DNA of 64,000 nucleotides from positions 224,688,001 through 224,752,000 of the forward strand of contig OZ024741.1 of the NCBI GenBank assembly GCA_964016885.1, in the 5' to 3' direction. Of the stretch, positions 9,821 through 60,200 are shown in pieces. Origin of the DNA: Eledone cirrhosa. Its lineage: Eukaryota. The translations under genes and the position numbers were made by a program. A model generated the notes under the pieces. It ran no database searches. It was not told where the DNA came from and saw only the letters and a program-made list of their open reading frames with translations. Every line of letters begins with the position of its first letter. The stretch's first letter is position 1.

Positions 9821-10042
9821 ATCTATCTATCTATCTATCTTCGTGATTGGTAGATGTGTATTACTTCGCTCCGGATTGTTTACGGATTATTGTACAAAAA
9901 ACTGTGAGTTTATTGTTGAATTTGTTATTATTGTTTAGTTTAACCCCTCGTCTGGGCCTTCAGACGTTGGGTTAACTAATTTTCGCCTGTTTTGGGGGCG
10001 AAATTTTCATCTGAAAAAATTGTGTAGACTTGTTAGTTAGTA

Positions 10043-11961
10043 ATGGATGCCATTTCAACCTCTCACACTGTAGTGAGTGCCACGCCCACTAAGAAAAGTG
10101 GTGGAGGAAAGGTAGGAGTACAAAGCTTGCAGCCTTCCCCCCTCGCCTTATCGAAAAACGTTGTAAATATTGCAACCAAGGAACCAAACCTGGTAAATAA
10201 TACCAGCACCAACAACAAGAACAATGACAATAACACCACAACCAACAACTGCAACAATAACAACACCAACTCCAAGGAAAATATGAACAACATCAACAAC
10301 AGTGACAATAACAACAGCAACAAGAAAGACAACAACACCAAAATATTGTTCGCACAAACTGTAAAAAAAAAAACAGAACTATAAACTCCAATTGACATCA
10401 CTAGCGCAAAACATCTACTCCAAGATGCAAAATACTATGTAACTTTTGGACAAAAGGGTGCAATTCTCCCCAGGTATTACGTTGAGAGACTGTCCTGAAA
10501 ACCACAGTTTTCAGGACAATATCAAACGCAACTAGAAAACCAGCTCAATAATCACAAAATGAAATTGAGCTGGTTCTAAAAGATGTAATGAAGGACATAA
10601 CCTTCATCCAAAGAGGAAAACTGTTTGGTAGCATTTCGGTGCTAATGAATGACCAGCAAACAGCACAAAAATACGCTGTATCACCCATTGTCCCCCCCGT
10701 TTCACCTTTTCCCCCACATATAGGGGAAAAAGGACACAAAAAAAAATTATGAGTATCACACCAAATATAAATATTTGGTGGATACTATCTGGATTCATTG
10801 ATTTTGATGAAGACAGACTAATCTCAGTAGGAAAGTCCTCCAGAGGTGTATTTAGTTGGACTAGCGTAGAAGTTCTGGTTCAAATGAGCCCAGAATGAAT
10901 AGTTAAAATCCCACAACGCGTGCCTCTGGACGGGCTAACCTATATAAACATTTCAGTTGAGGGTAGGTGGCTGTCATGTTACCACTGCTTAAGCAGGGGT
11001 CACCTGAGGGCTGCTTGTCCTCAATTAACGAGTAAAAAAAGGCTCTTCTGCCAACCCCGAATACAACAACACAACCACCACCACCACCACCACCACCACC
11101 ACCACAACCACCACAACAACACGAAAAAATAACAACACAAGACACTGTCCCACCCAATCCCTCACCACCTAAAACAAATACAAAAGCACCCGCAACCACA
11201 ACAAACCCCCAAAATATACCCCTCCCCAACAACACGGACGAGGACCCCTTATCAACGTCACCCAGTGACGACGAGGGAGAGCCCTTTCAAACAGTAAAAA
11301 GAAAGAAAAGAAGGCACCATATTAACACAAATGCAACAAACACACAACCACCAGCACAAACAGAACAAACATCACAAACAAAAACCACCACTCCCGAAAA
11401 CATAACACATACTACAAAACGCAAACACACACAAGAACAACAAAAAAACAATAAAACAAAACAAACACAACACAACAAAACCATTATGCATACATCAACA
11501 CAAACAACAAAACACTTGTACAAACAATAGACAAAGACCCTTCGGTGGAAACCGAAGGGAAAATGTTCACCAACGCGGCGAATAAACCGCATTAAAAAAT
11601 GATTAGGGTCCCAAGGGACACCTACGCAATGCTCAAACAAAACTTTCCCGAGGACGTGGGGAACCCCTGTACTAGACCTTCCAACCGCATTCTTTTGAAA
11701 TGTTTCCCCACCACCACCCCAGACACCCCACCCCACCACACACTGATGTCTCCACCACACCCCAAACCACCACCCCACCAAACAACCCCTCCAACACCCA
11801 CATGGAAATTGTGCAGCCTGGTCCTCAGGAGACGGAGAGGTAGGTGTCTTTTCTTTTTCTCCACTTTAACTCTTCACCACCAACATGGCTGTTATAAGAG
11901 TTGGATGCTTATGCTTGCGCGGCCTGGAGTTGTCCTGGAAGCAGGGCAAACTCTTAAATGA
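10043..11961 (+). pseudogene. ORF1 of copy B (gag-like, single CCHC knuckle)
   Basis: Fragments homologous to ORF1 of copy C; CYHCLSRGHLRAAC knuckle; several stops and frameshifts. Confidence 0.85.
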
Positions 11962-14900
11962 CCTCAGGTCGCACAGAATGGATGTAATAGCTATTTGCGA
12001 GTCCACGATCAGCAGCGAGCACCAACTGGCCCCCATCTTCGACGAATTGAGATCTATGCATCTCTCTGTCAGCCGGGGGGGTGGGGGTGGGGTTGTCGTT
12101 CTGCTGCGAAAACACCTGGGCCTCGCAACACGGAAGGAACACCTGGACCCGGAGGGTCGACGGGTGGTTCTAGAGGTCTGCAGTAGTGAAGCTGGAGCCT
12201 TCAGGCTGGTGGCAGCGTATGCCCCATCTGGCACACCGCGGCCGGACTTCTTCCAACGTCTAGAGACTTTTCTGGGAACGTCCCGCTCCTTGCTTTTAGT
12301 GGGGGACTGGAATGGTATCCTGGATGCACGTTGGGACTATTTAGGGGCATGTCCCGATAGAGGGGTGTAATAGCCTCAAACGGTTAATCGGCCGATTTGA
12401 CCTGGCCGATAGATATCGACTAGATTTTCCGACTGTGCCACTGTGGGCATGGACTAATCATAGCGGAACATCTAGGTCGTACCTAGATAGGTTCCTAGTT
12501 AAAAAAAAGGATAGGGACATATTAAGCTGTCCATGAATGTTCATGGTTGACTATTCGGATCACAAGTTACTGACCTGCGTAGTCAACCTTGATAGAACCC
12601 ATAGACAGGGATCCAGTTATTGGAAGCTAAAGTTGTCCTTACCGACAAACACAGCTTACAGTAAACGGATTAGCACTTTAGTTAAGCAGCGGTTGACGGA
12701 GGCAATTGTCAACAGCAGGTGGTGGGGCTCTCTAAAGAGAGCAATTAGAATAGAATCGATAGGTTTTAGTCAGGAATTAGCATTAGATAGGAATATAACT
12801 GAAAGAGAATTGATAGATAGAGTAGAAGAGGCGATTAGGAGTGGCAACGTGGCCGGCGTGTTGGCGTCAAGAACGGCCCGAGACCTGTTCTTTGACGCGA
12901 AGCACGAGGGCTGCGTTGTCAGAAGCAAAATACGTGCTCTGAGTAACGAGGGAGCCAAAGCTGTTAGTTGGGCCCGAGTGACGGAGGCAAAAAGTGGAAA
13001 CAAGTCCACGATTCGGTATTTGAAGGACCAGGATGTACGTGTGATCCTTGAACCTGAGCGGATGTCGCGGCCTTTCAGCGGCACTTTGCACGACTGTTCG
13101 GGAGGGGCGGCGGGCCGGGTGAGACCATGGATTTCGGTCCATACCTCGACAGTCTGCCGCGTCTCTCGGACGCGGAGGCGAAGTCCTGCGAAAGGTCGAT
13201 TTCAGCCGCTTAAATAGGGGAAGCGCTGAGCCGATGCGGCAAACACAAATCTCCGGGTCTCGATGGTCTACCATACGAACTTTATGTAGCGATGCCGGGC
13301 TTGTTCTCCGATCTCCTCGAGGCGGTTTGCTGCAACTTGCAACAAACGGGAGAATTCCCAGTTCTGTGACCAAAGGCGTAGTCACGCTAGTCAGGAAGGA
13401 CGAGAACAAGGGGGATGACATAGATAACTTCAGGCCCATAACTCTGTTAAAGATTTTGGCCAAGGTGTTAGCGAAGAGGTTGGCGCTTGTCGTCGGGAAC
13501 CTGGTGGGAGAAGCGCAGACATGCGCAATCCCGTCCGTCCAGGTCCATACACGACAACCTCCACCTCATGCGATACATCGGAGAGAGGGTAGGGAATGAA
13601 CCCGGATTTGGTGGGGCCCTGATCAACTTGGATCAATCTAAGGCGTTCGATAGGGTCGACCATCGGTACCTGGATGCGGTGCTCGCGGTGGCAGGCTTCG
13701 GACCCGTGTTCAGGGGCTGGATTACTGCAATGCACAACAGCAACACCTGTTCGAGGGTCAAGGTGAACGGCTACCTCTCGGAGCCGTTCCAAATCACGTG
13801 ATCCATCCGACAGGGATGCCCTCTCTCCTACCTTCTGTATGTGCTGGCTCTAGAGCCACTACTGCGGAAGTTGGAGCTGTTACAGGGCATCCCCTTGGAA
13901 TCGGGATTGCGGAAAGCGGTGTCGGCCTACGCCGATGACGTGACAGTAATGGTGCCGAGCGCCTCTCAAATCGGGGAGATCGGCACCTTACTGGAGGAAT
14001 ACGAAAGGTTTACAGGAGCCAAGCTGAACTGGGACAAGTCCGTCGGTTTACAACTCGGAACGTGGAGAGGCAAACCGATGTCTTCCGACGGCGTCGTCGG
14101 ACGCTGGACGGAAGGACTGGTGAAGCTTCTCGGGGTCTGGTTCGGACCAGACCTCCAGGTGGAGAAAAACTGGGACGAGGTAACGGGCAGGGTGTTTGCA
14201 CTCTCCCAGAAGTGGGCCGAGTGCAAACTATCCCTGGAAGGTCGAGCGGAGGTGGCGAACACTTATATAGCGCCCGTCATCTACTACCGCTTGACCGTCG
14301 TGCCTTGCCCAGCGAAAACGCTCGCCAAAATGGAGCGCGCGCTCTTCCAATTCCTTTGGAAGAAGCCTGTCCCTTTGGTGAGAAGATCCATTTGCTGTCA
14401 ACACCCTTCGAACGGAGGGCTGGGGATGCCATGGCTGACGATGCGTAAACATGCATTAAGGCTACGGCACCTCCAGGTATTCCTCACCGGTCAACCGGTG
14501 TGGGCCTCTTTTGTGAGGCCAGCCTTTCCGAGACTCGTCTCGCTCGCCGAGTTGCAATCCTGGGTCAAGCAAAGACCAAGAAAAGTGGGCGACTGGCACA
14601 TTCAATGTGCCAGTCGCTCACGGCCCTCTGGCAAGCGGATCCGGCAATCAGTGGAGACTCCACCTCGACATTCTATAGAGGGTTGGTGCGCAGCAAGTGC
14701 GACGACGCTCTCGGAGAAGCTCTGGGCATGGAGGAAGACGAACTACCCAGTCTGTTCGGTAGGACGTTTGGCCCGGGACCGATGGACAATTTCCAAAAGT
14801 CCCTGGCCTGGCAGTGCTGCCGAGGAGCTTACCCGTTCGGGACAAGCTCTACAGATACGGGCGCCCGGGTAGGGACCCCTCGAAAAAGATCTGTCCGAGA

Positions 14901-15316
14901 TGCGTGCGTGACGAGGAAACCGTCGCGCACGCATTAGTACACTGCCCGGGCGTTGCTGCCCTGTGGGGCTATGTAGAACGACTACTGTCGCGGATGGGAC
15001 CAATCCGGTTGACCACCGAGTCCATTGTCATGATTAAACCGCCTCCCCCCCTTCAAAAAACGAAGGAGAGGCGGTTTTCCTTTGTGTGATAGCTATGGCT
15101 AAAGAGGTTGTATGGTGGACGAGGTTGAAAGGGATGAGGTCAGACACCTTTCTCTCCGGCCAACAACTGATCCTTTTTTTCAAATACCACTTTGGAAGAA
15201 GAATCAGGATGGAGAGAGAGGTGCTGCACCCCAGCAAGTTTTTTGAAAGGTGAGTGAAAGTGGCGAGAATGGCCCGAGTGAATGGGCCTTCTCTCTATAT
15301 CAGCCTATCTCTATAG
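11885..15316 (+). pseudogene. ORF2 of copy B (APE-RT-CCHC), disrupted
   Basis: GDWN, SDH, DQSKAFD, YADD and CPRC motifs spread over several frames. Confidence 0.93.
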
Positions 15317-15580
15317 GTTGAGGGAAAAGAGGAAGAGAGGAAAGGAGTACTCACTCTTTGTACTCCCGGAGATGAGGGTTGCACATTTTTTTCGGGGGTA
15401 CGTGTTACCCATATGTAATGTCTCCCCTATTGGGGAAAATCGATTAATTTTTAAATTGCATTTGTGATAGTATTTTACACGTTTTTATTGTATGTAAACT
15501 TTCCCCTTTGTATTTGTCCCCTTCTTTTGTGCCCCCGTGGCTAATAAAGAAACATATCTATCTATCTGACTGCTTAACTG

Positions 15581-25059: not shown

Positions 25060-25439
25060 ATATATATATATATAACAGAAAAGTCAACAAGGAAAAACAT
25101 CAATGACAAAGTTGTTTATATAAAAACAAAACACACTATTAAAGGGAACAAAAAAAGGAAAACAACACAAGAAAACAATACAATATATTGATGATATATT
25201 AATTTAACGCTTGATATAGTTGGAAAAGGGCCCTAACGTTTCGGACGCTAGACTTTCATCAAAAAGTACAAAAAGAGAGAAGAGAAGAGGCTTTGATGAC
25301 AATAGTGACGACAATGATGGTGATGGCGTTAGTTATGGTGATGAAAATGTAGACGATAATGGTGATTATAATGGTGATGGTTGGGGTGATTATGGTGGTT
25401 GGGAAGATGATGGTGTCGAAGATGATGATGGCGATGGTG

Positions 25440-25458
25440 TTGGAGATGATGCTGGTTG

Positions 25459-25493
<35 letters not shown>

Positions 25494-26870
25494 GTGATAG
25501 TGATGGTTGTGGCGATGATGATGATGACGATGATGGTGATGGTGATGGTTGTGTCGATGATGATGATGACAATGATGGTCAAAGTGATGGTTTTGGTTGT
25601 GGTGATGACGTTGATGACGATGATGGTGATGGTGATGGTTGTGACGATGATGATGATGACAATGATGGTCAAAGTGATGGTGATGGTTGTGGTGATGACG
25701 TTGATGACAATGATGGTGATTGTGATGATGATGGTTGTGGTGATGACGTTGATCACAATGATGGTGATGGTGATGGTGATGGTTGTGGTGATGACGTTGA
25801 TGACAATGATGGTGATGGTGATGGTTGTGACGATGACGTTGATGACAATGATGGTCAAAGTGATGGTGTTGGTTGTGGTGATGACGTTGATGACGATGAT
25901 GGTCAAAGTGATGGTGATGGTTGTGGTGATGACGTTGATGACAATGATGGTCAAAGTGATGGTGATGGTTGTGGTGATGACGTTGATGACAATGATGGTG
26001 ATGGTGATGGTGATGGTGATGGTTGTGTCGATGACGTTGATGACAATGATGGTCAAAGTGATGATGTTGGTTGTGGTGATGACGTTGATGACAATGATGG
26101 TCAAAGTGATGGTTTTGGTTGTGGTGATGACGTTGATGACAATGATGGTCAAAGTGATGGTTTTGGTTGTGGTGATGACGTTGATGACAATGATGGTCAA
26201 AGTGATGGTTTTGGTTGTGGTGATGACGTTGATGACAATGATGGTCAAAGTGATGGTTTTGGTTGTGGTGATGACGTTGATGACAATGATGGTCAAAGTG
26301 ATGGTTTTGGTTGTGGTGATGACGTTGATGACAATAATGGTCAAAGTGATGGTTTTGGTTGTGGTGATGACGTTGATGACAATGATGGTCAAAGTGATGG
26401 TTTTGGTTGTGGTGATGACGTTGATGACAATAATGGTCAAAGTGATGGTGATGGTTGTGGTGATGAAGTTGATGACAATAATGGTCAAAGTGATGGTTTT
26501 GGTTGTGGTGATGACGTTGATGACAATGATGGTCAAAGTGATGGTTTTGGTTGTGGTGATGACGTTGATGACAATAATGGTCAAAGTGATGGTTTTGGTT
26601 GTGGTGATGACGTTGATGACAATAATGGTCAAAGTGATGGTGATGGTTGTGGTGATGAAGTTGATGACAATAATGGTCAAAGTGATGGTTTTGGTTGTGG
26701 TGATGACGTTGATGACAATGATGGTCAAAGTGATGGTTTTGGTTGTGGTGATGACGTTGATGACAATAATGGTCAAAGTGATGGTGATGGTTGTGGTGAT
26801 GACGTTGATGACAATGATGGTGATGGTGATGGTTTTGGTTGTGGTGATGACGTTGATGACAATGATGGTA
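25440..26870. repeat. 48-bp minisatellite derived from GAT/GGT triplets
   Basis: Unit gatgacgttgatgacaatgatggtcaaagtgatggttttggttgtggt, homogeneous from ~26050 to 26800 and degenerate to the left. Confidence 0.92.
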
Positions 26871-27019
26871 TGGTGATGTGGTGATAACGATGGTGGTGGT
26901 GATGATGATGATGATGTTGTTGATAATAATCACAAGACAGTCATATCAATTATTGGAGAACAATGAAGTAATAAATTCAACTTTTTAGTTGAATTTGTGT
27001 GTTTGTTTGTTTGTTTGTG

Positions 27020-32789: not shown

Positions 32790-33688
32790 ATGGCGATGAT
32801 GATAGGGAGGAGGAGGAGGAGGAGATGATGACGATGATGGTGATGGTGATGGTGGGGGTGGTGGTGATGGTAAGGACGATGATGGTGATGGTGGTGGTGG
32901 TGGTGGTGATGGTAAGGACGATGATGGTGATGGTGGTGGTGGTGGTGGTCGTGGTTGTGGTGGTGGTGGTGGTGGTGATGGTAAGGACGATGATGGTGGT
33001 GGTGGTGGTGGTGGTGGTCGTGGTTGTGGTGGTGGTGGTGGTGGTGGTGATGGTAATGAGGATGATGGTGATGGTGGTGGTGGTGATGGTGATGGTAAGG
33101 ACGATGATGGTGATGGTGGTGGTGGTGGTGGTCGTGGTTGTGGTGGTGGTGGTGGTGGTGATGGTAATGAGGATGATGGTGGTGGTGGTGGTGGTGATGG
33201 TAATGAGGATGATGGTGGTGGTGGTGGTGATGGTAATGGTAAGGACGATGATGGTGATGGTGGTGATGGTGGTGGTGGTGGTAAGGACGATGATGGTGAT
33301 GGTGGTGGTGGTGATGGTAATGGGGATGATGGTGATGGTGGTGGTGGTGGTGATGGTAATGGGGATGATGGTGATGGTGGTGGTGATGGTGATGGCAATG
33401 AGGATGATGGTGATGGTGGTGGTGGTGGTAATCGTAAGGACGATGATGGTGATGGTGGTGGTGGTGGTGATGGTGATGGTAAGGACGATGATGGTGATGG
33501 TGATGGTGGTGGTGATGGTGGTGGTGGTGGTGATGGTAATGAGGATGATGGTGATAGTGATGGTGGTGGTGGTGGTGGTGGTGATGGTAATGAGGATGAT
33601 GGTGATGGTGGTGGTGGTGGTGGTGGTGGTGGTGATGGTAATGAGGATGATGTAATGATGGTGAGGATGATGGTAATGATGATAATGT

Positions 33689-42149: not shown

Positions 42150-44630
42150 ACGCATTCTACCACCACCACACAGACTCTACCACTACCACAGAGATTCTAC
42201 CACTACCACACACACTACCACCACCATACACACTCTACCACCACCACACAGACTCTACCACTACCACACATACTCTACCACTACCATACACACTACCACC
42301 ACCATACACACACTACCACCACCATACACACTCTATCACCACCATACATACTCTACCACTACCATACACACTGCCACCACCATACACACACTACCGCCAC
42401 CATACACACTCTACCACCACCATACACACTCTACACCACCACACAGACTCTACCACTACCATAGACACCCTTCCACCACCACACAGACTCTACCACCACC
42501 ATACACACTACCACTACCATACACACTACCACCACCATACACACTCTACCACTATCATACACACTGCCACCACCATACACTCTCTACCACCACCACACAG
42601 ACTCTACCACCACCATACACACTACCACTACCATACACACTACCACCACCATACACACTCTACCACCACCACCTCACACTCTACCACCACCATACACACT
42701 CTACCACCACCACACAGACTCTACCACTACCATACACACTGCCACCACCATACACTCTCTACCACCACCACACAGACTCTAACACTACCACACATACTCT
42801 ACCACTATCATACACTCTACCACCACCATACACTCTCTACCACCACCATACACACTACCACCACCATACACTCTGTACCACCACCACCTCACAGACTCTG
42901 ACACCACCATACACACTCTACCAACACCATACACACTCTACCACCACCATAGACACTACCACCACCATACCCACTCTACCACCACCATAGACACACTACC
43001 ACCACCATACCCACTCTACCACCACCATACACACTCTACCACCACCATACACCCTCTACCACCACCATACACACTCTACCACCACTACACACACTCTACC
43101 ACCACCATGCACTCTCTACCACCACAATACACACTCTACCACCACCACACAAACTCTATCACTACCATACCCACTCTAACACCACCATACACACTCTACC
43201 ACCACAATACACACTCTACCACCACCACACATACTCTACCACCGCCATACACACTCTACCACCACCATACACACTCTACCACCACCACCATACACTCTCT
43301 ACGACCACCACACAGACTCTACCACTACCACAAACTGTACCACCACCATACACACTCTACTACCACCATACACTCTGTACCACAACCATACACACTCTAC
43401 CACCACCACACACACTCTACCACTACCACACTCTCTACCACCACCATACACTCTCTACCACCACCACCACCTTACACTCTACCACCACCATACACACTCT
43501 ACCACCACCATACGCATTCAACCACCACCATACACACTCTACCACCACCATACACACTCTACCACTACCATACACTCTCTACCACCACCCACACACTCTA
43601 CCACCACCATACACATTCTACCAACACCATACACACTCTACCACCACCATAGACACTCTACCACCACCACACACACTCTACCACCATCATACACACTCTA
43701 CCACCACCATACACACTATACCACCACGACACCCTCTACCACCACCACACACACTCTACCACCACCATAGACACTCTACCACCACCATACACTCTCTACC
43801 ACCACCATACACACTCTACTACCACCATACACTCTGTACCACAACCATACACACTCTACCACCACCACACACACTCTACCACTACCACACTCTCTACCAC
43901 CACCATACACTCTCTACCACCACCACCACCTTACACTCTACCACCACCATACACACTCTACCACCACCATACGCATTCAACCACCACCATACACACTCTA
44001 CCACCACCATACACACTCTACCACTACCATACACTCTCTACCACCACCCACACACTCTACCACCACCATACACATTCTACCAACACCATACACACTCTAC
44101 CACCACCATAGACACTCTACCACCACCACACACACTCTACCACCATCATACACACTCTACCACCACCATACACACTCTACCACCACGACACCCTCTACCA
44201 CCACCACACACACTCTACCACCACCATAGACACTCTACCACCACCATACACTCTCTAGCACCACAATACACACACTACCACCACCACACACACTTTACCA
44301 CCACCATACACACTCTACCACCACCACACACACTCTACCACCACTATACACACTCTACCACCACCATACATACTCTACCACCACCATCCACACGCTACCA
44401 CCACCACACACACTCTACCCCTACGATACACATTCTACCAACACCATACACACTCTACCACCACCATACACATTCTACCACCACCATACACACTCTACCA
44501 CCACCATACACTCTCTACCACCACCCACACACTCTACCACCACCATACACATTCTACCAACACCATACACACTCTACCACCACCATACACACTCTACCAC
44601 CACGACACCCTCTACCACCACCATACACGT
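42150..44630. repeat. ~20-bp minisatellite (CACCACCATACACACTCTAC)n with a higher-order duplication
   Basis: Unit directly visible; marker variants such as tacgcattcaacc recur at ~43511 and ~43970. Confidence 0.92.
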
Positions 44631-45293: not shown

Positions 45294-46272
45294 AAATTAC
45301 CTCTATTAATTCATAGCTTCTAAATTCAACGGAGAAAAATCAGGTGGGTAAATTGGTGTAATCAGTCTAGCACAGTTACCAGCAAAATAAGTGGGGTTAG
45401 TTCAATTCCCACGCTTGCAGATGCCCATTTTCCCCCGTTATTGGGGCTTATATATGTCCTGACATATTATAAACAAACATGCTCCTTTACACATACGCAT
45501 ACACATTCGCACAATATATTTATACTGTACACAATAATTAGACTGGTTTCTAATGTTTCACGGTAAGGCCATAGGTTGACTCCCAGGGAGAAGAAACCTG
45601 TTTGATCTGTCAAACTTGAAAGTTAAAACGGTTATTTAGGTATTTTGGTTTTGCTGCGTAACCATTTTGCCTGAAGATTATAAGGTCATACAGGTTTGTC
45701 TTCTCTGAGAACTCATTCCACAGCTTCACCATGAAACTTAAGTAACAAATATATTATTTAAGTATAATAAAAGTATCAAATTTAAATCTGCCATCGGCAC
45801 TAATTTCGTTCTATATGATGAATGTTCCTCCAGTCACTGGTACTCTCAGCTCCCAAATGATAGAGGGTGTTGGAATAAGCGGGGTTGGGGGTGGTGGTTG
45901 GGAAATCGGTAATTGTATAGTGTATGTTCGTAAATATGGGTTTTCTTGTAACGTTCTTTTCCTGTCATATATAATGTCTTTTGAAATGTAAAATAAAATT
46001 ATTAGATTCTCCAGCTGCTGTATCAATATGAATCACTTACAATAAAATCTATCTATCTATCTATCTATCTTGATAGAGTAAGACACGCTTCACATCGGCT
46101 CCGCTATTCCATCGGGATTTACCCTTACTATTGTAAGTACCGGATAAATTTTTCAGTGCAACACATTTGGAACACTAACCCCTGTTATTTAGGGAAACAT
46201 TTTTGCATTTACCCCCTTTTTAGGGGGTAAAATAAATATCTATTTTTGCCGAAAAATTTCGTTCTTGGCAGC

Positions 46273-48060
46273 ATGGCGGAAAAGATGGCAGACATGTCTG
46301 CCATTAGCTCTGCCACGCCCCCTAAGTCTGAAGAACAAAAAATAATTACAACAAAATTAGACAACGAAAGAAACAAAGAAAATGAAAAAACAAATGTTAA
46401 GGAAAATGAGCAAACGGAAAACAAACAAACAGAAAATAATACAAATAACAACAGGGCAACTTTCGCCCAGAAAACAAAACAATCCATTACATACACACCA
46501 ATTGACCTAACGGCCGCCAGAGAAAAACTGGCCGAAGCAAAGAAACACATTGTTTTGGGGGAAAACGGAATGTTTTCCATTAACTCCCCCCCAGAATTCA
46601 AGAAAGCGAGAACAGAGAACACAGTTCTCTTCAGAACAATCCTAAACCAAACAAGAAAGCCAGCACAGCCCAGCCAAATGGAGATAGAGTTGGTCCTAAA
46701 AGACTATATGAAGAATATTCTCTTCATACGAAAGGACCGACTCTATGGCAGCATTTCGGTCCTAACAAAAGACAAGGAAACGGCGGAGAAGCTTTCCCTA
46801 AGCCCACTCTCATCGACAACATACAGCTTCTATCCCTCCTACATGGGTAGAAGAACACAGAGAGTAAAAATACAAACAATGCTGCCCACAATGGACTTCT
46901 GGTGGGCTATTGCTGGCTTCATAGACATGGGCGAGGACACAGTGCTGTCAATGGGGAAGGCATCCGGAGATGCGTTCCTGGGAATGGGCCTCGACCTCCT
47001 AGTCCAAATGAGACCCGAAAGAATAGCACAAATCCCGGATCGCATCTGGCTGGATGAGCTCACCCCAATAGATATAATTGTAGAGGGGAGAAGACCAGCA
47101 TGCTATTTATGCACGGAAAGGGGACACATTAAGGCTAACTGCCCGAAACGTATCCCCCAAAAAGGACTATTGCCCACACCCATCACAAACAGTACACCAA
47201 CACCACCCACCTCCAAAAATACACTAATACCACACACAGCAAACAAAATACAAACACCACCAAGCACAACACAAACATCACCATCACCAGCACCAAACAC
47301 AAGCACGACACAAAAATCACCACCACCATCACCAACACAAACACCACCACCACCATTACCAACCACAAGCACGACACAAACAGCACCACCACAAAACGCA
47401 TTCCAAACAAATAATAAAAAAAAACAGCAACAAATCTACCCCTCCCGCAAAAAAAAAACAACCACACAACACGTCCCTCTCACCTAGCGCTGAAGAGTTT
47501 CCCCCAACTTCTGAAGAAGAAGGAGGAGAAACCTTCAGACAGGTTAAAAGAAAAAAAAGAAAGCACACACCCAGCACACCACAAATAACCCACACACAAA
47601 CACCAACTCCAATAAAAAACACCCCACCCTCAACAAACAAAAATAAATCTGCGCCTCCCCTCTCCGAAACATTGACAGCATCACAAAAAAAGACATTGCA
47701 ATACACATATATAAATAAAGAAAACAAAAAAACTGTTTAAATTAATAAACAATAGCCCTTTGGTGCAGACCGAAGGGCCAAACTTTATCTCAACAGAGAA
47801 CTTCACCCATTTAAAAATGATAAAGGTCCCTCTGGACCTTTATCGTTCCTTAAAAGAACAATTTAGACAGGACGTGAGCCCCCCCCCCCCCCTGTTTAAA
47901 ACCGTTAAATCGCGTCCTCTTGAAAGATTTCCCCATAACCTCCCCTCTCCCTGACACAACTCCAAACACCCCCAACCCCACCACACTCGGGCACCCCCAC
48001 AAAACATCCCTCCACCCAACACACCTGACGCCATGGAAATTACACAGCCCGGAGAGGTAG
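46273..48060 (+). CDS. ORF1 of copy C (gag-like, CCHC knuckle, T/P-rich linker, basic KRKKRK patch); three homopolymer frameshifts
   Basis: ATG 46273; CYLCTERGHIKANC; frame restored across A-runs near 47450 and 47728 and a C-run near 47885, ending PWKLHSPER* at TAG 48058-48060. Confidence 0.85.
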
Positions 48061-48091
48061 GTGCTTTTCTTTCTTCACTTTCAACACCAAA

Positions 48092-51000
48092 ATAGATCAA
48101 TTGAGAGTTGGCTGTTTGAACGCGCGTGGCCTGGGCTCAGCTTGGAAGCAAGCAAAGCTACTAAGTGACCTCAGGTCACGAAGTATAGATGTGATGGTTG
48201 TTTGCGAGAGTCGGATCAGCAGCGTGCGACAGCTGGCTCCCGCCTTCGATGACTTTGAGATGCACGCATCTCTCTGTCAACCCGGAGGCGGGGGGGGGGG
48301 AGTTGCCGTACTGCTGGATAAACGTCTGGCTCTCGACGTACAGATTGTTCACTCGGACCCGGGGGGTCGATTACTGGTGCTGGACGTCGGAGGCGGTGAA
48401 GGCGGGGCTTTCAGACTGGTCGGTCTTTATGCCCCCTTCGGAGCTGAAAGAGCCGACTTCTTCCAGCGACTGGAGACTTTTCTAGGAACGTCGCGTTCCC
48501 TGCTTTTAGTGGGGGACTGGAATGGAATCCTAGATGCGCGTTGGGACTATGCAGGGGCATGTCCCGATAGAGGGGGGTGTAGCAGCCTCAAGGGGTTACT
48601 CGATCGATTCGACCTGGTCGATAGATTTCGACTAGATTGTCCAACTGCACCAACCTGGACCTGGGCAAACCGCAGTGGACAATCTAGATCGTACCTAGAT
48701 AGGTTTTTGGTTAGGAGTAAGGATAGGGACGTATTTAGTTGTCCAGAATTGATCATGGTTGGCTATTCAGATCACAAATTAGTGACCTGCGTGGTCAACC
48801 TTGATAGAACGCATAGACAGGGTCCCGGTTACTGGAAGATGAACTTGTCCTTGCCGGCAAAGAAAGATTACAGGAACCGGATTAGTAGCTTAGTTAAGAT
48901 GCGGTTGACGGGAGCGATCGTCAACAGTAGGTGGTGGGTATCTCTAAAGAGAGAGATTAGAGTAAGTTCGATAGGTTACAGTAAGGAACTAGCGGCGAAT
49001 AGAAATAGGAAGGAAAGGGAGTTAACAGATAAACTAGAAGAGGCGATTAGGAGCGGAGACGTAGCCAGAGTGTTAGCGGCGAGAACGGCGTTGAGCCAGT
49101 TCTTTGACGCGAAGCACGAAGGCTGCGTTGTCCGAAGTAAAATACGTGCTTTAGGAAACGAGGGGACCAAAGCTGTTAGCTGGGCCCGCGTGACAGAAGC
49201 CAAGAGTGGGATTAAATCCACCATTCGGTCTTTGCGAGACCAGGATGGACGGGTGATCCTTGAACCTGAGCGGATGTGCGAGGCCTTTCAAAGGCACTTT
49301 GCTCGACTGTTCGGAGGGGGCGGGGGGCCGGAAGGGGATGTGGACTTCGGTCCATACCTCGACGGTCTACCGCGTCTTTCGAGCGGCGAAGCGGAGTGCT
49401 GCGAAAGGCCAATCACAGCCACTGAAATCGGGGAAGCGCTCAGCCAATGCAGCAGACGCAAATCTCCGGGTCTCGATGGTCTACCATACGAACTTTATTT
49501 AGCTATGCCGGTCTTGTTCTCCGAACTCCTCGAGGCTGTCTATTGCAACTGGCAACAGAACGGGAGAATTCCCTGTTCTGTGACCAAGGGCGTGGTCACG
49601 CTAGTGAGGAAGGACGAGAGCAAGGGGGACGACTTAAGTAACTTTAGGCCCATAACTCTGCTGAATGCAGAGTTACAGATTTTGGCCAAGGTGTTGGCGA
49701 AGAGGTTGGCGCTTGTGGTGGGTGGTTTGGTGGGAGACGCGCAGACATGCGCTATCCCGTCCAGGTCCATTCACGACAACCTCCACCTCATGCGATACAT
49801 CATAGAGAGGGTTGGCAACGAACCCGGCTTTGGTGGGGCCCTGATCAACTTGGATCAATCTAAGGCGTTCGATAGGGTCGACCATGGTTACCTGGATGCG
49901 GTGCTAGCGGCGGCGGGCTTCGGAGCCGTTTTCAGGGGCTGGATTTCTGCCATGCACAGTGGCAACATCTACTCTAGGATTAAAGTAAACGGCTACCTCT
50001 CGGAGCCGTTTCAAATCACCCGGTCCATCAGACAGGGGTGCCCCCTCTCCTCCCTTCTGTACGTATTGACTCTCGAGCCACTGCTGCGGAAGTTGGAGTT
50101 GCTGCGGGGCATACCCCTGGAACCGGGATTGCACAAAGCGGTCTCGGCCTATGCCGACGACGTAACAGTAATGGTGGCGGACGCCTCGGAAATCGGGGCG
50201 ATCGCCACCCTACTGGAGGAATACGAAAGGCTGACGGGGGCTAGGCTGAACCGGGACAAGTCAGTCGGTTTGCAACTCGGAACATGGAGGGGCAAACCGA
50301 TGCCGTTAGACGGTGTCGTAGGGCGGTGGACGGAGGGCCCGGTGAAGCTGCTCGGGGTCTGGTTCGGACCCGACCTCCAGGTGGAGAAGACTTGGGGCGA
50401 GGTGACGAGCAGGGTGTTTGCGCTAACGCAGAAGTGGGCCAAGTGCAAACTATCACTGAAAGGTCGGGCGGAGGTGACGAACGCTTACATAGCGTCCGTC
50501 ATCTGCTACCGCCTGACCGTCGTGCCTTGCCCCAAGGAAAAGATCACCATCATGGAACGCATGCTCTTCCAGTTCCTCTGGAAGAAGCGGCCTCCCATGG
50601 TGAGGAGATCCATCTGCTGCCAGCACCCTTCGAAAGGAGGGCTGGGTATGCCGTGGCTGTTGATGCGTAGGCACGCATTGAGGCTACGGCATCTACAGGT
50701 ATTCCTCACCGGTCAGCCGGTGTGGGCCCCGTTTGTGAGGCGAGCCTTCCCACAGCTCGTCTCGCTCACCGAGCTGCAATCCTGGGTGAAGAAAAGACCG
50801 AGAAAACTGGGCAACTGGCACACCGAGTGTGCCCAGGCGCTCACGGCTATCTGGCAAGCGGACCCGACTGTCAGTGGAGAATCCACCTCGACATTCTATA
50901 GAGGGCTGGTGGCTAGCAGGGGCGACGACACCCTTGGAGAGTCGCTAGGCATGGAGGAGGACGAACTGGCCAGCCTGTTCGGTAGAACTTTCGGCCCGGG

Positions 51001-51532
51001 ACCCATGGACAACTTCCAGAGGTCCCTAGCCTGGCAGTGTTACCGGGGGGCTCTGCCCGTTCGAGAAAAGCTCTACAGACACGGGCGCCCGGGCAGGGAT
51101 CCAGCGAAAAAGATCTGTCCCAGATGCGTGCGCGACGAGGAAACCGTTGCGCATGCACTGGTACACTGCCCGGGCGTTGCCGATCTGTGGGGCTACGTCG
51201 AACGACTGCTGTCGCGTGTGGCGCCGATTCGATTAACCGCCGAGTCTGTGGTGAACATCAAGCCGCCGCCTCCCTTCAGAAACGAAGCAGAGGCGGTCTT
51301 TCTGTGCGTAATAGCCATGATGAAAGAGGTTGTGTGGTGGACGCGCCTGAAAGGTCTGAGGTCGGGTGACTTTCTCTCCGGCGATCACCTGGTTTACTTC
51401 TTCCGATACCACTTCGGAAGAAGGATCAGGATGGAGAGAGAGGTGCTTGGCCCCAGACAGTTTTATGAAAGGTGGGTGAAAGAAGCGAGAATGGCTCGTG
51501 TAAATGGGCCTTCTCTCTACATTGTTCTGTAG
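48092..51532 (+). CDS. ORF2 of copy C: APE endonuclease, reverse transcriptase, CCHC finger; start codon reads ATA
   Basis: 1143-aa open frame from TTG 48101 with NARGL, GDWN, SDH, FRPITLLN, DQSKAFDRV, QGCPLS, YADD and CPRC...H...C; ATA at 48092 aligns with the ATG of the other copies. Confidence 0.95.
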   Translation: MDQLRVGCLNARGLGSAWKQAKLLSDLRSRSIDVMVVCESRISSVRQLAPAFDDFEMHASLCQPGGGGGGVAVLLDKRLALDVQIVHSDPGGRLLVLDVGGGEGGAFRLVGLYAPFGAERADFFQRLETFLGTSRSLLLVGDWNGILDARWDYAGACPDRGGCSSLKGLLDRFDLVDRFRLDCPTAPTWTWANRSGQSRSYLDRFLVRSKDRDVFSCPELIMVGYSDHKLVTCVVNLDRTHRQGPGYWKMNLSLPAKKDYRNRISSLVKMRLTGAIVNSRWWVSLKREIRVSSIGYSKELAANRNRKERELTDKLEEAIRSGDVARVLAARTALSQFFDAKHEGCVVRSKIRALGNEGTKAVSWARVTEAKSGIKSTIRSLRDQDGRVILEPERMCEAFQRHFARLFGGGGGPEGDVDFGPYLDGLPRLSSGEAECCERPITATEIGEALSQCSRRKSPGLDGLPYELYLAMPVLFSELLEAVYCNWQQNGRIPCSVTKGVVTLVRKDESKGDDLSNFRPITLLNAELQILAKVLAKRLALVVGGLVGDAQTCAIPSRSIHDNLHLMRYIIERVGNEPGFGGALINLDQSKAFDRVDHGYLDAVLAAAGFGAVFRGWISAMHSGNIYSRIKVNGYLSEPFQITRSIRQGCPLSSLLYVLTLEPLLRKLELLRGIPLEPGLHKAVSAYADDVTVMVADASEIGAIATLLEEYERLTGARLNRDKSVGLQLGTWRGKPMPLDGVVGRWTEGPVKLLGVWFGPDLQVEKTWGEVTSRVFALTQKWAKCKLSLKGRAEVTNAYIASVICYRLTVVPCPKEKITIMERMLFQFLWKKRPPMVRRSICCQHPSKGGLGMPWLLMRRHALRLRHLQVFLTGQPVWAPFVRRAFPQLVSLTELQSWVKKRPRKLGNWHTECAQALTAIWQADPTVSGESTSTFYRGLVASRGDDTLGESLGMEEDELASLFGRTFGPGPMDNFQRSLAWQCYRGALPVREKLYRHGRPGRDPAKKICPRCVRDEETVAHALVHCPGVADLWGYVERLLSRVAPIRLTAESVVNIKPPPPFRNEAEAVFLCVIAMMKEVVWWTRLKGLRSGDFLSGDHLVYFFRYHFGRRIRMEREVLGPRQFYERWVKEARMARVNGPSLYIVL

Positions 51533-51764
51533 GTGAAGAAGTGAAGAGGAAAGGGGGAGCGCCTCCTCCCTGGGCTTCCCCCGCGAAAAGGGTTGCACAC
51601 TTTTCGGGGGGTATGTGCAATCCCGAACACGCCCCCTCCCTTTTGAGGACTTTTTATTATTATATTATTATTGTTATTCCTTTTTTCTTTACTCGATTTA
51701 TGTAAACTCCCCCACTGTGTATTTGTCCCCTTCTTTTGTGCCCTCGTGGCAAATAAATAGAAAT

Positions 51765-51837
<73 letters not shown>

Positions 51838-57227: not shown

Positions 57228-57252
57228 TATCTATCTATCTATCTATCTATCT

Positions 57253-60200
57253 CTTTATCTGCCTGACGCGTGGAACATCGCCGGTAAGATCTTTTGTAAA
57301 TTTATATACGAAAAACAGAACAAATTGTTTGAAAAACCATACTATTTTGTAGATTAACCCCGAAGCTGAACAACCCGATTGAACAACCCGATTGAACAAC
57401 CCGATTCCAGAAAACGAAAAGGTAAGTGCACCTTTCGTCCTTTTTCTCCAATTCTTCTTCACCAACATGGCTAGTTTACGAGTTGGACGCGTGAATGTGC
57501 GTGGCCTAAGGATGCCCTGGAAACAGGGCCAACTTTTAAACGACCTTAGGTCACACGGTATGGATGTGATAGCCATCACCGAGTCCAGGATCCACAACAG
57601 GCAGCAACTAACCCCCATCTTCGACGACTCTGAGATCTATGCATCTCTCTGTCAGCCAGGAGGTGGGGTGGGGGTGGGGGGTGGGGAGTGGCTGTCATGT
57701 TTCGGAAGAACCTGGACGTCGAAGTACAGCAAGTACACTTGGACCCGGAGGGTAGACTGGTAGTCCTAGACGTGAACAGTATTGGAGGTGGAGCCTTCAG
57801 ACTGGTGGCCGTTTATGCCCCGACCGGGCAATCGCAATCACGGCCAGACTTCTTTAAGCGTCTAGAGTCTTTTCTGGGAACGTCTCGCTCCTTACTTTTA
57901 GTGGGGGACTGCAATAGTATCCTAGATGCACGATGGGACTATGTGGCAGCATGTTCCAGTAGAGGGGGTGCAACAGCCTCAAAACTTTAATCGGCCAATT
58001 CCAGCTGGCCGATAGGTATCGACTGGATTTCCCGACTGCACCACAGTGGGCAAACTTCAGCGGGATATCTAGATCGTATTTAGATAGGTTATTCATTAGA
58101 GAAAGGGACAAGGGGATGTTAAGCTGTCCACGAATGCACATAGTTGCCTATTCAGATCACAAATTAGTCGTCTGCTTAGTCAACCGTGATAGAAAACATA
58201 GACAAGGACCCGGATACTGGAAACTGAACGTGTCGTTGCCGGCACGTAAAGCTTACAGTGAACGGATAAGTAGACTAGTCAAGCAACAGTTAACGGGAGC
58301 CATCGTCAACAATAAATGGTGGTACTCTCTCAAGAAAGCAATTAGAATAGAATCGATAGGGTTTAGCAGAGAGTTAGCCCTAGAGAAATACAAATTAGAA
58401 AGAGAACTAGTAGCCAAGGTAGAGGAGGCTCTTAGAAGTGGCAACGCGGTTAGAGGGTTAGCGTCGAGAACGGCACTGGACCAGTTCTTCGATGCGAAAC
58501 ACGAAGGCTGCGTGGTCAGAAGCAAACCACGTGCTCTAGGAAACGAAGGAGCGAAAGCTTTCAGAAGCACATTGCGCGACATTGAGCTGAACGGAGCAAT
58601 GGACTTTAGTTCATACCTCGACGGCCTACCGCGTCTCTCGAACACGGACACCGAGTTCTGCGAAAGACTGATCACGGACACTGAGATACGGGACGCTCTG
58701 GGCCGCTGCGGGAAACGCAAGTCACCCGGTCTAGATGGTCTACCCTATGAGTTTTACATAGGCATACCGGACATGTTCTCTGGCGTCCTCGAAGCCGTCT
58801 ACTGCAGTTGGCAGCAGAACGGGAGAATTCCCAGTTCTGCAGGCAAGGGCGTAATAACGCTGATCAGGAAAGACGAGAACAAGGGGGACGAAATTAACAA
58901 CTTCAGGCCCATAACTCTGCTCAACACAGAATTAAAGATTTTGGCCAAGGTGCTAGCGACGAGGTTGGCGCTTGTCGACGAGAACCTGGCAAGGAAAGCG
59001 CAATCGTGTGCAATCCCGACCAGGTCCATACACGACTACCTCCACCTCATGCAATACATCATAGAGAGGGTGGGTACTAAACCCGGCTTCCGTGGGGCTC
59101 TGATCAATTTGGATCAGTCTAAGGCTTTCGATAGGGTCGACCATCGATACTTGGAAGCGGTTCTCAAGGCGGCCGGTTTCGGTCCCGTTTTCAGAGGCTG
59201 GATCGAGGCGATGCACACCAGCATCTGCTCGAGAGTCAAGGTGAACGACTACCTATCGGAGCCGTTTGCAATTACACGCTCCATTCGACAGGTGCCCTCT
59301 CTCCTCCATTCTGTATGTATTGACTCTAGAGCAACTACTGCGGAATTTGGAGCTGTTGCAGGGCATCCCTCTAGAACCGGGACTGCACAAAGCGGCGTCG
59401 GCTTATGCCGACGACGTGACGGTAATGGTGTCGAGCACCTCGAAAATCGGGGTGATCGGCAACTTACTGAAAGGATACGAAACGCTGACGGGAACAAAAC
59501 TAAACCCGGACAAGTCTGTCGGTTTGCAACTCGGTACGTGGAGAGGCAAACCGATGACGTCCGACGGAGTCGTTGGACGCTGGACGGACGGACCGGTGAA
59601 ATTGCTCGGGGTCTGGTTCGGTCCAGACCTCCAGGTGGAGAAAAACTGGAACGAGGTCACGGCCAAGGTGTTTGCGCTCACCCAGAAGTGGGCAGAGTGC
59701 AAACTGTCCTTGAAAGGTCGAGCGAAGGTTTCCAACACTTTCATAGCGTCCGTCATCTACTATCGCTTGACTGTCGTGCCTTGTCTCCGTGAACACCTTG
59801 CCAAGATGGAACGCATGCTCTTCCAGTTTCTGTGGAAGAAGCAGGCTCCGCTGGTGAGGAGATCCGTCTGCTGTCAGCACCCTTCCAACGGAGGGCTGGG
59901 AATGCCGTGGCTGATGATGCGCAAACATGCGCTGAGGCTGCGGCATCTCCAGGCATTCCTCACCGACCCTCAACCGGCGTGGGAACCGTTGTGAGACAGT
60001 CTTTCCCACAGCTCGTCTCGCTGACGGAGCTGCAGCCCTGGGTCAAGAAAAGACCGAAAACGATGGGCGCCTGGCACATTGAATGCGCTCAGGCGCTCAC
60101 AGTCCTCTGGCAAGCGGGCGCAGCAATCAGTGGAGACTCCACTTCGACATTCTATAGAGGGATTGTACGTTCCAAGGGCGACGACGTGCTCGGAGAGACT

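Follow-up and report, generated by a model that had tools for sequence, protein, structure and literature searches.

LINEs need unspliced RNA for copying, yet human L1 retains a splice donor (G98U99) in its 5'UTR, and integrated spliced copies, known as SpIREs, make up about 1.8% of its full-length copies for one class (PMC5860796). In the discussion given there, the conservation of this leader donor is termed surprising and is attributed to an overlapping RUNX3 site. In the Ty1/Copia element EVD, U1 blocks early termination of RNA (PMC5580714): as that report outlines, the conserved donor of the shGAG intron binds U1, which both allows splicing and keeps the full-length RNA from terminating early. 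Along the same line, a 5' splice site guards RNA from Restrictor without splicing in mammalian cells (PMC12211998), so that, according to its summary, a donor close to the promoter shields a Pol II transcript from Restrictor/ZC3H4 even without a usable acceptor. As regards target choice, the Tx1 families Kibi, Koshi and those of crocodilians are described as inserting into microsatellites, namely (TC)n, (TTC)n and (TTCC)n/(TTTC)n (PMC4494074).

Here, I show that a LINE group present in a 64,000-nt stretch of Eledone cirrhosa DNA (hereafter the window) carries a leader donor which resembles that described for human L1 in being conserved, functional, rarely used and located less than 100 nt from the 5' end, in an RNA that is mostly unspliced, and in being able to reach several acceptors. 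A conserved, rarely used leader donor is, by that description of L1, already known. New here is a donor in a Tx1-type LINE that is kept while shifting position, with covarying hairpins behind it and no spliced copies: unlike L1, for which one fixed donor is described, the donor alternates between two positions among lineages, and, whereas L1 has left spliced copies, no integrated copy of the SpIRE type is found among 624 copies retrieved by exact patterns. Among the papers listed by searches of the open literature, none concerns leader donors or hairpins of Tx1-type LINEs.

The other systems are more distant likenesses. EVD, as described, is an LTR element with an intron in its coding region and splicing that has been shown, whereas the present element is non-LTR, its donor lies in the leader and splicing to an internal acceptor is putative. 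The Restrictor case can be likened to the leader donor; as summarised, protection concerns mammalian reporters and mRNAs and is best with strong sites, whereas here a LINE is concerned and its distal donors look weak. The Kibi, Koshi and crocodilian families are likewise described as two-ORF LINEs with endonuclease and reverse transcriptase (RT) in a simple repeat, the target here being (TATC)n. In retroviruses, the major splice donor lies upstream of the packaging signal, and the hairpins behind it can be removed by splicing; the present donor is similarly close to the 5' end and followed by conserved hairpins, for which a packaging role would hold only by analogy.

The window contains two head-to-tail arrays of one LINE group, in which (TATC)n bounds each unit. 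Two copies, B and C, are full-length:

9840-15555, plus strand: full-length LINE copy B, of an older family, with ORF1 and ORF2 both broken
46050-46069, plus strand: (TATC)5 target tract ahead of copy C
46070-51765, plus strand: full-length LINE copy C
46273-48095, plus strand: ORF1 region of copy C, with a CCHC knuckle and a frame that is interrupted in this copy
48029-51532, plus strand: ORF2 open frame of copy C, with endonuclease, reverse transcriptase and zf-RVT

The ORF2 of C matches Exo_endo_phos, RVT_1 and zf-RVT in Pfam, the last under its curated cut-off, and its best match in PDB is human L1 ORF2p (E 3.7e-48), with R2 at 1e-21. The ORF1 translation contains CX2CX4HX4C, a nucleic-acid-binding motif; a Pfam search with ORF1 gave no hit, and a homologue search found none. 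By their ORF2 domains and upstream ORF1, B and C are L1/Tx1-type non-LTR LINEs, the Tx1 label being presumed from structure and target. The C family comprises at least 508 copies, the best 40 of which have about 99% leader identity. All the C loci inspected (30/30) begin directly after TATC units; B loci mostly do so, about 8/30 having a different upstream sequence. Some B-type leaders (L050, L053-L057, L059 and L060) have their first 11 nt swapped for a common non-TATC upstream sequence, and are possibly a chimeric sub-lineage or duplications.

The leaders of these copies, together with that of a third copy, E, contain the following:

46070-46132, plus strand: exon-1-like head of the C leader
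46133-46138, plus strand: C donor GTAAGT, offset +64
46257-46271, plus strand: candidate acceptor of C, a CAG behind a pyrimidine tract, 1 nt ahead of the ORF1 ATG
9904-9909, plus strand: B donor motif GTGAGT, offset +65, placed relative to the head anchor as in C
10034-10040, plus strand: two tandem TAGs of B ahead of the ORF1 ATG (10043), of which B subgroups retain one or the other
57252-57370, plus strand: first 119 nt of an E-family leader, linked by a deletion to the end of ORF1 and containing a donor of the proximal type (GT at 57284, +33)

Both the B and the C leader measure 203 nt. The AG ends at 10040 in B, 2 nt ahead of the ATG at 10043, and at 46271 in C, 1 nt ahead of the ATG at 46273, which leaves segments of 137 and 139 nt, respectively. 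An earlier note on this DNA had given the same donors, AG ends and lengths; its offsets of +63 and +62 were rightly near-equal and fall 2 nt short of the +65 and +64 counted here from the first base past the TATC tract, owing to the end assumed for that tract. The same note had considered the two leaders not alignable. They are homologous: the B-C alignment reaches z 3.0 (2/300 shuffles equal it) and the leader of family I bridges the two (B-I z 10.5, C-I z 4.4), so that unrelated leaders are ruled out. Given this homology, the match in donor position and segment length is inherited and does not reflect two independent events. The exon-1-like head is likely the internal promoter region. GCTCCG at +29 to +34, shared by B, C and also I (9867-9873; 46097-46103), is a possible downstream promoter element.

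The GGTAAGA that had been pointed out at 57283 in the leader of E is indeed present, in a window copy that is internally deleted, its leader breaking off at about +119 and continuing with the end of ORF1; the E family has an ordinary 216-nt leader plus ORF1. A spliced or ORF1-less family is ruled out for E, this being a single deleted copy with a junction that is not at splice sites. About 1.9 kb are missing from the copy (57252-57470), namely the end of the leader and nearly all of ORF1, and a 13-nt repeat stands three times at the junction; among the best 40 matches, only copy E itself matches the query over its whole length.

Within the segment between donor and AG, the TAACCCC and the hairpins previously noticed in B and C are present, and the segments fold more stably than shuffled sequences do (C, z -2.9; B, z -4.6):

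46175-46179, plus strand: CTAAC of C, a branch-point-like motif of putative role
46180-46194, plus strand: C hairpin 1, short form
46208-46231, plus strand: C hairpin 2
46231-46236, plus strand: C AATAAA right behind hairpin 2 (+162)
9940-9975, plus strand: B hairpin 1
9981-10003, plus strand: B hairpin 2

The two hairpins recur across lineages, hairpin 1 being shortened in C and divergent in G. In 11 natural copies, 86% of the hairpin cells are paired and 17 cells are doubly changed, values that 0/500 shuffles attained in a test where related sequences can beat shuffles; pairs that are doubly changed number 7, which falls short of significance (44/500 shuffles). The leaders' TAAC/TGAC motif, which fits the branch-point consensus, is homologous to the C motif. 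In B, D, E, F, I and J it belongs to the 5' arm of hairpin 1, and it is unpaired in C. Rfam gave three weak matches to the segment, all far under the gathering score. The hairpins could alternatively be DNA inverted repeats bound by protein; G-U pairs in their stems lean towards RNA hairpins. As to polyadenylation signals, the first 1.7 kb of C contain six AATAAA, five of which fall in the A-rich part of ORF1 (+1344 to +1675), and in B the first does not occur before +1611.

The conservation of the donor was followed in nine lineages drawn from searches and from tandem neighbours, namely B (with subgroup B2), C, D, E, F, G, H, I and J, of which F and I are represented by two copies and G, H and J by one each. 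Identity between lineages is 52-76% for ORF1 DNA and 34-67% for the leaders. A GTRAG occurs within the first 90 nt in 8/8 lineages with an intact 5' end (shuffle probability 0.05-0.17 each), which are related and not independent trials, family H being excluded from this count as it looks 5'-truncated; the background in the window is 1.4 GTRAG per kb. The donor lies 20 nt past the head anchor in D, E and G, and 51-53 nt past it in B, C, F, I and J (the distance of 51 in family I was read by eye); the two positions are never both occupied in one lineage, and D and F have an additional GTRAG at 40-43 past the anchor. The proximal-type donor occurs in two separate regions of the ORF1 tree, with nodes of support 78-90 between them; supports in this tree are modest overall (61-90). 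On this phylogeny, more than one shift of the site between its two positions is probable, a pattern that leader swapping between lineages could mimic. Among distinct fetched copies, the donor motif is intact in 13/16 of B, 13/18 of B2, 16/17 of C, 9/9 of D and 31/32 of E. The bases at -3 to -1 of the distal donors are poor (ATT, ACT, ACA, TTT, AAC), with 5.5-6.5 of 9 matches to U1. Eight diverged lineages that keep the donor and yet move it amount to a natural experiment that favours selection on U1 pairing itself.

A case in point as to the use of the donor comes from the contigs of one run (X4), one study and one sample, which is taken as RNA from a GT-AG junction and from uneven cover. One contig follows the C leader to 46131 and goes on with at least 255 unrelated letters. 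Its junction was read from 30 letters of the loose end. The first 26 of these match the genome once only, on the minus strand at C3:31426894, where the sole mismatch is the opening letter. The matched site stands directly behind a pyrimidine tract and an AG, and opens a 71-nt exon that ends at GTAAGT. Upstream of this exon and on the same strand lies a full-length C copy in which an A precedes the GT, as in the contig; such an A, present in 11 of the first 100 listed C copies, accounts for the mismatched first letter of the loose end. From GT to AG the joined intron measures 9,466 nt, and the copy's own proximal CAG is intact yet was skipped by the splice. With about 500 copies in 3 Gb, the chance of a same-strand C copy lying within 10 kb upstream is, by arithmetic, about 1 in 1,000. 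The leader donor of the C family is a functional 5' splice site, used in this contig at a C copy other than that of the window.

The spliced locus (L093, G000:C3:31436423-31426824) yields a LINE-headed transcript whose 71-nt downstream exon has one open frame and ends at a donor of its own. This exon has no Pfam hit, and no host gene was found near it among 150 of the 176 nearby frames, in which HTH_32 scored above its cut-off upstream and two further hits were weak; the exon may be cryptic or non-coding. Some 500 young C copies would each offer a ready head of promoter plus donor, available for splicing to exons further downstream, as happens in one copy.

On the acceptor side, 6/9 lineages, namely B, C, D, H, I and J, have a YAG no more than 6 nt from the ATG (shuffle probability 0.06-0.13 each). 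Donor and acceptor taken together, the sites look best in D. B has one in 33/33 distinct copies, though its subgroups keep different AGs. In C, D and I, the AGs past the branch-like motif, other than the one proximal to the ATG, occur only within the hairpin region. An AG near the ATG is absent in E, F and G, and in 12 displayed full-length copies of the E family with an intact start none occurs in the last 35 nt of the leader. As for the RNA, an X4 contig covering 46103-46318 spans both C sites unspliced; a family-I contig, with GC rather than GT at the donor, is also unspliced. X4 gives the B leader zero cover and bears on C and I only.

Among the genomic copies, the donor stands directly behind exon 1 in 507/508 of C, 57/61 of B and 54/55 of D, and spliced copies number 0/624 (C 0/508, B 0/61, D 0/55) by exact patterns, which miss older copies as well as G-starting exons in C and exons with T as second base in B and D. 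Six copies without the G or T at the donor were considered as splice products and ruled out, being small deletions or point changes. The human L1 rate, applied to the 624 copies, predicts about 11 spliced ones.

The earlier note had seen in 46133-46271 and 9904-10040 a retained intron, which holds in so far as the donor works, in another C copy, and is kept across lineages; excision of the segment itself is unseen, and either stretch remains a candidate short intron, unproven as such. The joint 46132-46272, by which excision was to be recognised, is absent among the joints listed in four runs, whose contigs drop rare variants, and the segment is retained in X4, which leans against an intron in that one sample. 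Comparison with other copies, suggested in the same place, bears out the donor (8/8 lineages) and less so the acceptor, its AG missing in 3/9. The further proposal that only unspliced RNA is retrotransposed agrees with the 0/624; if the segment is rarely spliced, no selective mechanism is needed for it.

Each of the five window copies also has a second, donor-like GTRRGT where ORF1 ends (6318, 11840, 48057, 53739 and 57422). In A, B, D and E it includes the stop codon of a frame running from a nearby MEI/MET motif, each of the three stop codons being in use. The G of this site is lacking in 36 A/E-family copies, of which 30 were inspected, with 0/30 canonical splice products. One A/E-family copy (L199) has about 130 nt deleted at an AGGT microhomology, and L194-L197 (C1:399.28-399.37 Mb) share four identical deleted junctions about 28 kb apart, suggesting tandem segmental duplication.

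What, then, keeps the donor? An explanation to which I would give an even chance is that its main role is to offer U1 snRNP a landing pad, on a structured leader that is normally retained. The internal promoter would sit in the leader, and a donor 30-65 nt into the RNA would recruit U1 near the cap, where its binding may shield an intronless, A-rich transcript from premature polyadenylation or from Restrictor/Su(s)-type termination. The hairpin-rich segment behind the donor would usually stay in the RNA; its hairpins, presumably a cis signal required by the element, would hamper use of the proximal AG, with hairpin 1 hiding the branch-point-like motif in most lineages, and splicing would be an occasional leak that joins the head of the element to downstream exons. 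Such a role would explain why the donor is universal and movable and why the acceptor is dispensable (E, F, G). It leaves unexplained the excess of YAG ahead of the ATG, which, being kept through AG turnover in B, points to selection on the acceptor. The weakness of the distal donors counts against a protective site; the late first AATAAA of B and the transcribed family-I contig with GC at the donor count against the U1 role, too.

That acceptor signal is what a regulated intron would leave. Here the segment would be excised in some transcripts, probably to yield an ORF1-only message that also loses ORF2; spliced RNA, having neither the RT in cis nor the hairpins, would leave copying to unspliced RNA, so that missing spliced genomic copies are predicted by this possibility as well. 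It is tentative and carries clearly less weight with me than the U1 role, although the proximity of YAG to the ATG in B, C, D, H, I and J and its survival of AG turnover in B, the confinement of the other AGs past the branch-like motif to the hairpin region in C, D and I, the working donor of the X4 contig and the additional donor at the ORF1 end of each of the five window copies are in its favour. Against these stand E, F and G, with no AG near the ATG, the unspliced segment of C and I in X4, and the sole observed splice, which bypassed the proximal AG; moreover, RNA spliced in the leader only should leave copies by cis preference, and 0/624 were seen versus about 11 predicted. A plan like that of retroviruses, with a major donor in the head, a structured cis signal within a true leader intron and a further donor where ORF1 ends, is rather doubtful; if true, spliced RNA would yield the ORF1 protein and genomic copies would come from fully unspliced RNA only. 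The GT might instead be kept as part of a transcription-factor site in the internal promoter, splicing being an unselected cost. The proximal donor lies at about +33, a typical downstream-promoter position, and the exon-side bases of the distal site are weak, both of which suit a promoter motif; the RUNX3 site described over the human L1 donor is a precedent (PMC5860796). Two alternate positions 32 nt apart with unrelated flanks are unexpected for a position-fixed motif, and the part that is kept, GTRAGT/A in the sense orientation, is complementary to U1, which makes this an unlikely account. Finally, accidental GTRAG and AG motifs in AT-rich leaders, passively inherited, with the one splice being cryptic, would fit the relatedness of the lineages and the single RNA event, and cryptic splicing from repeats is common; yet with a donor in 8/8 lineages at 0.05-0.17 each, over a background of 1.4 GTRAG per kb, and kept despite flanks diverged to 34-67% leader identity, chance is highly improbable. 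The protective role of U1 on a retained leader is preferred here.

Some further features of the window concern its coding parts. In the young C family, the start of ORF2 is without the usual ATG in 7/7 copies (48029-48100; L103-L107, L093), and ORF2, in the -1 frame, overlaps with the last part of ORF1. Splicing the 48057 donor onto the AG closest to it would leave the ORF2 frame unrestored, a point that makes AUG-independent reinitiation or frameshifting likely for C-family ORF2. Copy C has, at 47416, 47726 and 47969, one base more per homopolymer run than most contigs of X1-X4; the extra bases could be specific to this copy or an assembly error. Long GAT/GGT-rich minisatellites at 25421-26916, 32824-33683 and 42156-44628, with periods of 48/144, 39-42 and 20, contain long stop-free frames that are apparently simple-repeat artefacts.
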